Assembly: GCA_965206595.1 (NCBI GenBank)
Contig: OZ242214.1
Span: 3,015,340-3,079,339 of the forward strand
Reading direction: 5' to 3'
Source: Candidatus Latescibacterota bacterium
Lineage (GTDB): Bacteria > Latescibacterota > UBA2968 > UBA8231
DNA: 64,000 bases
Part shown: positions 39,179 to 48,159 of the stretch, in pieces
How positions within the stretch are numbered: position 1 is the stretch's first letter
Layout: every line of letters begins with the position of its first letter
The notes under the pieces: generated by a model
The model's input: only the letters and a program-made list of their open reading frames with translations
Told to the model about the DNA's origin: nothing
Databases searched by the model: none
Made by a program: the position numbers and the translations under genes

Positions 39179-39252
39179 GGTGCCCCGGGCAGCCGGGTCG
39201 AGGACTGACGCGGTCAGGGTCTACGCACGGCGAGCGCCACCACGCCTATCGA

Positions 39253-40200
39253 TCACTCCACCGATAAAACGAGCTTTTTCCAATCCGGAAACGTTCCCCG
39301 TTCAAGGAATTTCAGCAACGCCTTTCGGCCAAGCTCGTACCCTTGCTCTGCGATTTGCGCGGCCTCCTTCCGCTTCCCGCTCTTCCTGTCCCGGCCCCCA
39401 TGCACGATCCCAGAACGGGCATCATAGAAACGCTTCACCGCGTCGAACACTTCAACCCGAGTCTCCGGCTCGTCGCCCAGAAGGTGTGCAGCCCTTACGG
39501 ACAGCTTGTGGGTCAACTCGCCACCCTTCAGCTGAAACATCACTTCCAGTGCCACAGCTACATCAAGGATGCGGTCCTCCTGCCAGAATCTTCCTCGATT
39601 GCGCCGCACCGACGAAACTAGCCGAGAGAGCGCCAGTTCCAGGAGATCACGCTTGTCCCTCCCGAAACTCGTCCATTCGCAGAACAGGCGACGGGCCTGC
39701 GTGACATGCTCCGATTTCAGCTCCTTCACCTTCCACCAATCCGTGGACACGAACCCCACCTTGGTTCCGGGCCCGAAGTTGGGATCCACGTCCACGAAAT
39801 CCGGCGCACACGAGAGAATCTCCACCACCTCGATCCGTTGCGATGTCACAAGCGATAACAGGTTGAGAAGCACTTCGTCCGCTAGACCGTTTCTCCAAGA
39901 GAATTTGACCCGTAGCGGCGGGTCATTGACGTGCTTCGACGTCCTTGGGGTCACTAGGCAAGGGCTCCAGATCATTTTTCGAAACAGTACCAAGGCTTGC
40001 ATATCCCTGTAGGGTGTAACGTCATTCCAAGGCGCAGGCTCCTCTTTCTTGAGCATTCCGCGTTTAACCGCGTCTTCATAAGACGCGAGGCCGGCGTCCG
40101 GCCCAAGCTCAACCACGCCGTTCATCACCAGTCCGCGAATTACCACAACATTGTAACCGGGCAAACGTCCTTCCGTACCAAGCGTCAGGAATTTGTCCAT
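39253..40200 (-). CDS. Hypothetical protein with a C-terminal HEPN-like motif (Rx4HG). Possible Abi/defence-associated RNase.
   Basis: C-terminal FYDARSGIVHGG (R-x4-H-G) inside a predicted helical domain. No other recognisable domain. Lies in the lower-GC island downstream of the R-M genes. Confidence 0.45.
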   Translation of the reverse strand: MDKFLTLGTEGRLPGYNVVVIRGLVMNGVVELGPDAGLASYEDAVKRGMLKKEEPAPWNDVTPYRDMQALVLFRKMIWSPCLVTPRTSKHVNDPPLRVKFSWRNGLADEVLLNLLSLVTSQRIEVVEILSCAPDFVDVDPNFGPGTKVGFVSTDWWKVKELKSEHVTQARRLFCEWTSFGRDKRDLLELALSRLVSSVRRNRGRFWQEDRILDVAVALEVMFQLKGGELTHKLSVRAAHLLGDEPETRVEVFDAVKRFYDARSGIVHGGRDRKSGKRKEAAQIAEQGYELGRKALLKFLERGTFPDWKKLVLSVE

Positions 40201-40591
40201 TTCCTCCGCTGCTGCCTCGTCTCCCCGTCTTGCGCCGATCCGTCGCTGCCCGCTGCGCCAATTGCTTCAATTCGACGCGGAAACCCTTACCAGGCATCGT
40301 CACGAACGTCGCCGTATCTTTACCCTGTCCACCAAAGACCGCACCTACCCCCGGGTGTTTCACCACAAGCTCGATCACCTTGCTTGGGTCCGCGTGGATT
40401 TCCGTCAGGTAATCGTCCAGCACCGCTCGCGCTTTCACGTCCACCCGACCGCGCTTTGCCAGCTCCTGATACTCAGCGTTACCCAGGTCCGGCAGCCCCT
40501 GACGATGTGCAGTCAGGGTCCCTGATAGCGGGCCCAACGCCTCCCCAAACGCATTGCGCCATGCTTCCCGACTTGGATCACTCACAGTCAC
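40109..40591 (-). CDS. Hypothetical protein (160 aa), unknown function. The 3' end is uncertain because it overlaps the next gene by 92 bp.
   Basis: Only an ORF with reasonable codon usage. No family recognised. A 23-bp tandem repeat lies upstream. Confidence 0.35.
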   Translation of the reverse strand: MTVSDPSREAWRNAFGEALGPLSGTLTAHRQGLPDLGNAEYQELAKRGRVDVKARAVLDDYLTEIHADPSKVIELVVKHPGVGAVFGGQGKDTATFVTMPGKGFRVELKQLAQRAATDRRKTGRRGSSGGNGQIPDAWYGRTFARLQCCGNSRTGDERRG

Positions 40592-40659
40592 CGCGATAAC
40601 CCCGGCCCGACTCTTTTAGCCACGGCCTAAGCGCTTCCCCCGAAACCCCAAGACACCAA

Positions 40660-47000: not shown

Positions 47001-47462
47001 TTTGTTGGCCCAGTGGAGCGTGACCTCCTCCCCCTCGTAGGGGATGGCATAGACGCCCGGCTTGTAGACCCGCTTGGCGAGAAAGTCGCCCTCGGAGTAG
47101 TAGCGGCGGAAGAAGCTGAACAGGTGGTCGTAGACCTCGCTCTCCAGCGCGCCGATGTCCACGGCGTCGCTCTTGAGCCGGGCGCGCAGGCCCTTGACCC
47201 TTTGCGTCGTCTCCGGGTCGACGCCCAGCCCCTCCGCCTGCTTGATGGCCGTGGCCAGCCTGTTCTCAATCTCAGCCTTGTCGGCAGTCCTGTACTGGCC
47301 GAATGCCGCCCGCACCTGCGGCAGCAGGTCCTCGTCAAGGAACTTTGACACCTCGGCGCTCTTGGCGTGCAGTACGCGGTAGATGCCGAAGTCCAGGTCT
47401 GGCTGGCCGAGCTGGAACAGCTCTTTAAGCAGCGTTTTCAGCTTCTCGTACCGTTGGCTCAT
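44004..47462 (-). CDS. mod: Beta-class N6-adenine/N4-cytosine DNA methyltransferase (Type III Mod-like, PF01555-type). Carries an unassigned ~550-aa N-terminal extension and a ~290-aa C-terminal region.
   Basis: Motif IV YIDPPYN (aa ~560) precedes motif [16 protein letters not shown] (aa ~830), which is beta-class order. Res is encoded immediately downstream. Total 1152 aa, against ~650 for canonical Mod. Confidence 0.75.
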
Positions 47463-47469
47463 CCGATCG

Positions 47470-48159
47470 GTTTCCCTTGTGGTTCATTGTTAAGGCATTT
47501 TCAGAAAGAACACTTCGACTTGGCAGCTCATGATTCTTCCGGCCGACACTTAGGAAAATAACGCACCGTTTAATCGATACCCTGTCAAGTTGCAGATAGG
47601 ACACACACGCCCTGAGACCGGTCTCCTCCTTGAGCCGCTCCCGCGCGTCGTTTCCGCGCGGCATGTTCTGATCTTGGCACAGCCACCAGGGGAAGTAGAC
47701 GTTGATCATGCCCACCCGGGGACCGTCGCTGCGGTTGGCCCCTCCGGTGTGCCAGAGCCGGTTGTCGAACAGCAGCACGCTGCCCGCGGCACCGGTCACC
47801 TGGGTCTCTCCGGGATGGGGGATCGGCAAGTCGAGGCCGGCGGTGCGGTTGGTCGGCGCCCGGTGCCGGGAAACTCGACAAACCCCTTCACGGAGCCCAT
47901 CCGGAGGTAGGGCCGAACATTGCCCGCATGGGGGCGAGCAGGCGCTCGTGCGCCAGGTACGGGGCGAATCGCCTGGTCGTGGTTGATGCAGAAGGGGATG
48001 AACCGATTCGGTGTTGGTCCCCCAGGTCCGGCCGAGCCGCCTCGCCGCTGTCTCCTCGATGCTCTCCCGCACCTCGGTCACCTCGCCGGGGGGAATGATC
48101 CCCTCCAGCAGGGACCAGCCGTGCACCCGGTGCTGGAACAGTACTTCGTCGAGACTCAT
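47470..48159 (-). pseudogene. Disrupted phytanoyl-CoA dioxygenase (PhyH) family gene with multiple frameshifts
   Basis: PhyH-like N-terminus (MSLDEVLFQHRVHGWSLLEGIIPPGEVTEVRESIEE) and C-terminus (LLFDNRLWHTGGANRSDGPRVGMINVYFPWWL) in one frame. The middle is out of frame. Downstream it reads through into low-GC intergenic sequence. Confidence 0.45.

Follow-up and report, generated by a model that had tools for sequence, protein, structure and literature searches.

Type III restriction-modification (R-M) enzymes such as EcoP15I, the Helicobacter pylori enzyme (Mod, PDB 6k0w), and Mbo45V are encoded by a mod gene followed by a translationally coupled res gene. The EcoP15I-type Mod is a beta-class methyltransferase in which DPPY precedes FxGxG, its Res partner combines a Walker A motif (GSGKT) and a DExH box with a C-terminal PD-(D/E)xK motif, and canonical enzymes of this type require no third subunit (PMC4490356). 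HEPN RNases can act in defense as single proteins: ApeA joins an N-terminal sensor to a C-terminal HEPN RNase and acts as a homodimer (bioRxiv 10.64898/2026.03.20.713152), and DARNA is a single-protein HEPN defense with the reversed domain order (bioRxiv 10.64898/2026.02.22.705581). At least 16 HEPN clades are linked to R-M operons, for which a guard logic has been proposed (Anantharaman et al. 2013, PMC3710099). Here we analyze a block that carries genes of both kinds in a 64,000-nucleotide (nt) stretch of a Candidatus Latescibacterota bacterium (contig OZ242214.1, positions 3,015,340 to 3,079,339; the window). An earlier note, made from the letters of the window and its open reading frames (ORFs), had read the block as a four-gene defense island. 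We consider it likely that the block is a small composite defense islet, in which two independent modules, a Type III R-M pair and a frameshifted HEPN gene, became fixed at one Latescibacterota chromosomal site and are now eroding. It is not a new four-gene or multigene architecture; the gene beside the R-M pair belongs to an uncharacterized HEPN family.

Four co-directional ORFs, all on the minus strand, lie at positions 39253 to 47462, where the earlier note had placed them (Table 1). The two largest are predicted to encode the modification (Mod) and restriction (Res) subunits of a Type III enzyme. Mod matched the PADLOC model MTase_III PDLC03646 (1057 positions; E = 4e-191) and, in sequence, EcoP15I Mod (E = 5.5e-30), with Pfam N6_N4_Mtase covering amino acids (aa) 507 to 878. 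Its beta-class core, at about aa 480 to 910, holds motif IV (DPPY, aa 512, 45918 to 45929) ahead of motif I (DFFAGSG, aa 861; FAGSG at 44862 to 44876) with the target-recognition region in between, which is the order of beta-class amino-methyltransferases. Res matched PADLOC REase_III PDLC03654 (E = 5.9e-216) and Pfam ResIII (E = 4.1e-10), and the helicase and PD-DxK motifs attributed to it earlier were all seen: GSGKT at aa 171 (43480 to 43494), DEGH at aa 272 (43180 to 43191), QLFGRGVR at aa 583 (42235 to 42258), and a C-terminal PD(974)...DPK(994) (41023 to 41085). The Mod and Res motifs seen here are those that define Type III systems in PMC8259958. The two genes are adjacent, the stop codon of mod overlapping the ATG of res (44004) as TAATG; begun at a GTG, the res ORF would span 40789 to 44067 and encode 1092 aa. 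On homology and motifs, then, the block holds a Type III R-M pair, and the earlier reading of a lower-GC defense islet with such a pair is borne out. By homology with EcoP15I, Mod would recognize an asymmetric site and methylate one strand. Translation of Res would be coupled to that of Mod, and Res would bind a Mod dimer, slide along DNA using ATP, and cut when two unmethylated, inversely oriented sites communicate.

Mod departs from the EcoP15I type in length, with 1152 aa versus 644 aa and conserved extensions of 480 aa (N-terminal, aa 1 to 480) and 240 aa (C-terminal, aa 910 to 1152); it also lies outside the size range typical of Type III Mod subunits (~600 to 700 aa). The earlier note had taken this "doubled" size as exceptional, which did not hold up. 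The 1057-position PADLOC model is one made for Mods of this kind, and we found at least 8000 homologs at E ≤ 1e-20. The best 120 of these were 56 to 92% identical to the Mod of the window and mostly 1120 to 1180 aa long; they are named site-specific or adenine-specific DNA methyltransferases, and their sources include Mesorhizobium, Bradyrhizobium, Rhodopirellula, Bacteroidota, and even Methanomicrobiales. Within Mod, conservation of 50-aa blocks is highest in the N- and C-terminal extensions, and the methylase and target-recognition region varies more. These results show that a length of ~1150 aa is standard for a Type III Mod subfamily that is itself very abundant. Similar Mod-Res pairs are carried by the Hymenobacter plasmid pHsw1 (full-length identity of Res, 52%) and by numerous IncF plasmids of Klebsiella and E. 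coli (38%), and the closest cassettes, at loci L032 and L033, have Mods 92% and 86% identical in protein (88% and 83% in nucleotide sequence), respectively.

The remaining two ORFs had been described as a 160-aa unknown partner and a separate HEPN-motif protein of 315 aa. Alignments indicate that they are the halves of one 445-aa gene broken by a +1 frameshift, and since they make up a single gene, the block has three genes rather than four. The 315-aa ORF retrieved 52 homologs, and all 47 that were near full length measured 423 to 492 aa, their N-terminal part matching the 160-aa ORF. The two ORFs share 92 nt. In the HEPN coding region, the only indel relative to the sister genome L001 is an extra G (ACGGATC in the window, ACGATC in L001), and the frame switches directly after ...LAQRAAT. 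When one G was removed, the resulting 445-aa protein aligned without gaps to the sister protein (96% identical) and to the family member P0002 (79%). Because the single inserted G splits the gene, the HEPN gene is most likely inactive in the window.

The view that the last ORF ends in a HEPN domain was confirmed. The domain occupies about 39256 to 39663 and has the four-helix HEPN fold; its Rx4H motif reads RSGIVH (39400 to 39417), and the R and H of RSxIxHG (R390 and H395 in P0002) are invariant in 36 of 36 aligned members, as is a preceding block, LxRLxSSxRRxxGRFxxEDRxLDxAxALE. An AlphaFold model of P0002 (predicted local distance difference test score, 84; predicted template modeling score, 0.82) places an N-terminal alpha/beta domain of ~300 aa ahead of the C-terminal HEPN domain. 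Among the matches listed, none was to the N-terminal domain, and neither Foldseek nor a search of PDB sequences by profile gave a relative. When 1.84 billion representative proteins were searched by profile, the family comprised 142 clusters at E ≤ 1e-30 (clusters at 50% identity), mostly 430 to 490 aa and full length, and 2366 at E ≤ 1e-10. Relatives on plasmids were found by tblastn through the HEPN domain only, under the PGAP name "HEPN domain-containing protein," and no phage relatives were found. One of these plasmid proteins, of 456 aa, is encoded on a Sagittula sp. P11 plasmid (L114:3083-4453) with no Pfam match and with IS3/IS66 on both sides. With the family's overall length and a match to its C-terminal third (E = 4e-6), it may represent a distant relative of full length that a conjugative plasmid carries.

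Among described HEPN proteins, ApeA (Pfam PF18739) offers the nearest architectural parallel: it too is a single protein with a noncatalytic N-terminal domain and a C-terminal HEPN domain, is encoded alone, and is found alone in defense and mobile contexts. It differs in length (~600 aa versus 445 aa), in its motif (RNKITH versus RS(R/G)I(V/I)H), and in its N-terminal domain, where NTD1 of ApeA is mostly beta (PMC3710099) and the domain here is mixed alpha/beta. Membership in the ApeA family was tested and rejected, HEPN_Apea reaching only E = 0.05 to 0.11 in two of 46 members; since this match falls below threshold, "ApeA-like" is used here as an analogy of architecture only. In that limited sense, the gene probably encodes an ApeA-like single-gene RNase. 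By analogy with ApeA and other single-protein HEPN defenses, the protein would probably dimerize via its HEPN domains to form an infection-triggered RNase, with the N-terminal domain as a putative sensor or regulator. Minimal HEPN toxins such as HepT/MntA differ as well. The 445-aa protein is three times longer and has its own N-terminal domain, no MNT antitoxin gene or other conserved small neighbor adjoins its gene, and Pfam annotation of the neighbors of the HEPN genes revealed no nucleotidyltransferase domain.

To the earlier note, the Type III pair and the HEPN gene formed one combined architecture; the distribution of the HEPN family does not support this. We searched 31 loci for Mod and Res with tblastn; a HEPN-family gene was present at 22 distinct loci among them, and two were plasmid Mod-Res loci. 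The sister Latescibacterota genome (1 of the 22) was the only one in which the pair stood beside the HEPN gene, and at the 21 unrelated loci neither Mod nor Res lay within 10 kb of it. ORF clustering within 5 kb of the HEPN gene across 21 loci gave no conserved partner except transposases and, in Dehalococcoidia relatives of 24 to 31% identity, a hybrid histidine kinase. Neighbors of the family include integrases, insertion sequence (IS) elements, ThsB-TIR, Mrr, NERD, AbiEii, RelB, and Fic, and in eight further genomes HmaB/HmaC, Type IIG R-M, ShosA, Upx, PsyrA, and other PADLOC families, which is the context expected of an autonomous defense or toxin gene. Because no Mod or Res occurs at the 21 unrelated loci and the neighbors are other defense and mobile genes, we treat the HEPN gene as an independent module.

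In distant Dehalococcoidia relatives (22 to 31% identical; L020, L022, L023, L025, and L026, at ~7.3 to 9.8 kb of each locus), the HEPN gene is directly downstream of a gene for a GAF-PAS hybrid histidine kinase/response regulator of ~800 aa. This adjacency is probably vertical synteny, and it could be a regulatory link.

Erosion of the islet is seen by comparison with its relatives. Two sister strains (L001 and L116) have the islet at the same site, from PhyH remnant to alcohol dehydrogenase; the sister contig, CBDCXV010000011.1, belongs to a "Candidatus Latescibacterota" metagenome-assembled genome (MAG). The islet is therefore neither strain-specific nor a fresh insertion, and appears to be an older acquisition that has been inactivated piecemeal. 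In L001, whose flanks are 95 to 97% identical to the window, IS66 interrupts Mod and ISL3 interrupts Res (L001:1827-3260 and 6637-7884), and the HEPN gene is intact. L116 is 97 to 99% identical to the window throughout and has an intact Mod; in its Res, ISL3 (L116:7510-8757) sits at a position other than that in L001, with an 8-bp overlap at 41398 to 41405, and its HEPN gene has the same extra G as the window. A further assembly has its HEPN gene broken near codon 357. Other cassettes are also disrupted: L115 has an rve-family IS in res (L115:12992-13990), and the res of L033 is in two pieces of 776 aa and 302 aa (L033:13464-16699). The frequent disruption of cassette copies in related MAGs suggests recurrent loss of restriction activity.

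Mod itself has diverged between the window and L001, with 74% identity over aa 1 to 534 and 58% over aa 718 to 1152. Nothing between these segments can be aligned; at the nucleotide level, the unalignable part is window positions 44570 to 46197 (central Mod, target recognition). Identity is 95% in the 3′ half of res. Recombination that exchanged one allele of the specificity region for another could have produced such a pattern.

The block is the lowest-GC 8.2-kb stretch of the 64 kb, about 2.6 standard deviations under the mean, so that the dip reported in the earlier note is real; the 50 to 55% given for it was too low, as GC content is 57.9% in the block and 65.1% in the rest of the window (0.526 to 0.595 and 0.63 to 0.72 in 1-kb segments of the block and flanks, respectively). 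A second, milder dip (0.60 to 0.62) lies at 32000 to 34500, and its counterpart in the sister genome contains AAA_14/DUF4143 ATPase genes. The flanking genes named earlier, an alcohol dehydrogenase and a degraded PhyH gene, were both confirmed by Pfam. The dehydrogenase ends 75 nt from the HEPN stop codon. An intact PhyH-domain ORF (49371 to 50888) lies ~1.2 kb from the PhyH remnant on the opposite strand, and the remnant, beside mod, may be the old insertion point of the islet. In line with the earlier note, no integrase or transposase domain appeared in Pfam scans, which covered the block and its immediate flanks and not the remainder of the window. No direct repeats flanking the block and no tRNA genes in the whole window were found, and promoter-like and terminator-like sites showed no excess over shuffled expectation. 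The synteny comparison suggested earlier located the block in the two sister strains and located no genome with dehydrogenase and PhyH adjoining at an empty site; in a search of Joint Genome Institute (JGI) metagenomes with the alcohol dehydrogenase, the best match was 79% identical, and the other flank genes were present at 0 of 80 loci. Between res and the HEPN gene, a 23-nt duplication (two copies of AGTAGTGAGAGATTTGTGAAGCG) sits 69 to 114 nt upstream of the HEPN gene start. It is specific to the strain of the window: the 23-mer occurs once in L116, and no exact copy of it was found in L001.

Table 1. Features of the islet and its borders, in window coordinates
Feature	Position	Strand	Description
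Zinc alcohol dehydrogenase	38147-39178	+	Pfam ADH_N and ADH_zinc_N; housekeeping flank on the HEPN side
HEPN gene	39253-40591	-	445-aa protein once the frame is repaired; N-terminal alpha/beta and C-terminal HEPN domains
HEPN C-terminal-half ORF	39253-40200	-	315 aa; the "HEPN-motif" protein of the earlier note
HEPN N-terminal-half ORF	40109-40591	-	160 aa; the "unknown" of the earlier note
Frameshift site	40241-40242	-	GG here, single G in the sister genome; GATC immediately adjacent
23-nt tandem duplication	40660-40705		Perfect, two copies, in the 197-nt spacer between res and the HEPN gene
res	40789-44004	-	1071 aa from ATG; predicted Type III restriction subunit, superfamily 2 (SF2) helicase and C-terminal PD-(D/E)xK nuclease
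mod	44004-47462	-	1152 aa; predicted Type III modification methyltransferase
PhyH remnant	47425-48159	-	Islet border on the mod side; Pfam PhyH profile positions 181 to 212 of 213 only

Cassettes related to this one often add a DrmD-like SNF2 helicase. Its gene (943 to 987 aa) lies directly upstream of mod in L032, L033, and widespread IncF plasmids of Klebsiella and E. coli (L032:7042-9960, L033:7128-9959, and, for Klebsiella, L009:1795-4758). Two of these three loci, L032 and the Klebsiella plasmid, have a small helix-turn-helix (HTH) gene close by, and about half of the related cassettes examined have such an upstream helicase. The protein matches the PADLOC DrmD model (E = 8e-200 for L032 and 3e-196 for Klebsiella), a likeness to class 1 DISARM; the locus described here differs from DISARM in having no trace of SNF2 or DrmD anywhere in the 64-kb window and no DrmA, DrmB, or DrmC. 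Two-gene Mod-Res pairs with unrelated upstream genes and no SNF2 occur at L115 and on Hymenobacter pHsw1, so the helicase would be accessory and not core. In the literature searched, neither the SNF2-Mod-Res triad nor large-Mod Type III systems were described. BREX, DISARM, and Hma were considered for the block and rejected: PADLOC assigned only R-M methyltransferase and Type III restriction models to Mod and Res, and core genes of DISARM (DrmA/DrmB/DrmC) and BREX (PglX/PglZ/BrxC) were not found.

Several results weigh against the two-module reading. Res had no sequence match in the PDB, which distinguishes it from Type III enzymes with a solved Res, and Pfam returned no match for the two Mod extensions. 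No significant Pfam, NCBIfam, or PADLOC model was obtained for either half of the HEPN gene or for full-length family members, so that the profile searches proposed in the earlier note assigned Mod and Res to Type III and left the HEPN ORFs below every threshold. HEPN_Apea stayed under its gathering score (E = 0.11 and 0.049 in the two members noted above), HEPN_MAE_28990 appeared in single members (E ~ 0.05 to 0.1), and PADLOC on five full-length members gave nothing at E ≤ 0.01, its only match being CARF_HEPN (E = 0.012). The frameshift is a single-base indel right beside GATC in an otherwise clean frame, and methylated motifs are known hot spots of systematic long-read errors. Because the names and coverages of related contigs (for example, 4x for L116) also resemble those of low-coverage long-read MAGs, the extra G could be a systematic base-calling error and the HEPN gene really intact and active. 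We think such an artifact somewhat unlikely, as L116, assembled independently from a different sample and otherwise 1 to 3% divergent from the window, has the same extra G, and as three database entries have the 315-aa form, including a protein identical to the ORF of the window. In addition, L001 and two other assemblies lack the extra G at the same site, the HEPN gene is disrupted differently in yet another assembly, and the IS insertions in mod and res show genuine decay of the islet. A further point concerns the R-M pair: its closest cassettes (83 to 88% nucleotide identity) have the extra SNF2 gene, and the two-gene form might be incomplete. Mod-Res would then be what is left of a system of three or four genes (HTH, DrmD-like SNF2, Mod, and Res) that has lost restriction and retains methylase activity at most. 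This would fit the SNF2 gene in the two closest cassettes and the Klebsiella IncF homologs, its complete absence from the window, and the point at which nucleotide homology to L032 and L033 begins (47484 to 47489, ~25 nt upstream of the mod ATG and at the PhyH remnant). It is nonetheless an unlikely account, given that Mod and Res are full length with all catalytic motifs intact, that two-gene forms exist elsewhere, and that canonical Type III enzymes do without a third subunit.

Other alternatives tie the modules together. The HEPN protein might be a PrrC-like guard that Mod-Res keeps silent and that is freed as a suicidal RNase when a phage neutralizes restriction, the three genes being one unit. 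The HEPN gene follows res after 197 nt in the same orientation, it always accompanies Mod-Res in the three sister strains, and the guard logic of Anantharaman et al. was proposed for just such HEPN/R-M linkage; as in PrrC/EcoprrI, the HEPN gene adjoins restriction genes in this lineage. The three strains, however, represent a single insertion event at one site, and the linkage is not conserved, being confined to one lineage among the 22 distinct loci. Conversely, loci with the closest Mod-Res cassettes lack the HEPN gene, and the nucleotide homology shared with the L033 cassette goes no farther than the stop codon of res. The protein also has no ABC-ATPase or other PrrC-like domain, and its neighbor is a Type III and not a Type Ic system. 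We regard a guard of this kind as very unlikely. The interpretation of the earlier note, that all the ORFs form one novel multicomponent system, draws on their common orientation, close spacing, and shared lower GC content, but one of the four "genes" is not a separate gene, Mod and Res fall under Type III models already catalogued, and the HEPN gene shows no co-conservation with the pair; we find this interpretation hardly credible. A composite islet of two independent modules is the reading that we prefer.

The composite islet reading removes a false "four-gene novel system" from annotation and carries a lesson for it, that two small ORFs of no assigned function can derive from a single gene split by a frameshift. 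Attention is also due to the DrmD-like SNF2 partner of the large-Mod subfamily, though it lies outside this window. Within the islet, only the HEPN family, with defense and mobile contexts in Gemmatimonadota, Alphaproteobacteria, Gammaproteobacteria, and Latescibacterota, has discovery potential, and its N-terminal domain without structural relative makes it a reasonable candidate for single-gene-defense screening. The three sister strains are a small natural example of defense erosion, with IS elements in mod and res and point frameshifts in the HEPN gene. We tentatively suggest, while doubting it more than we credit it, that the 445-aa family is a previously undescribed single-gene anti-phage or anti-mobile-element system in which a new N-terminal sensor controls a HEPN RNase. 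If that were true, the repeated independent inactivation of the HEPN gene in sister strains would reflect the cost of the toxin.

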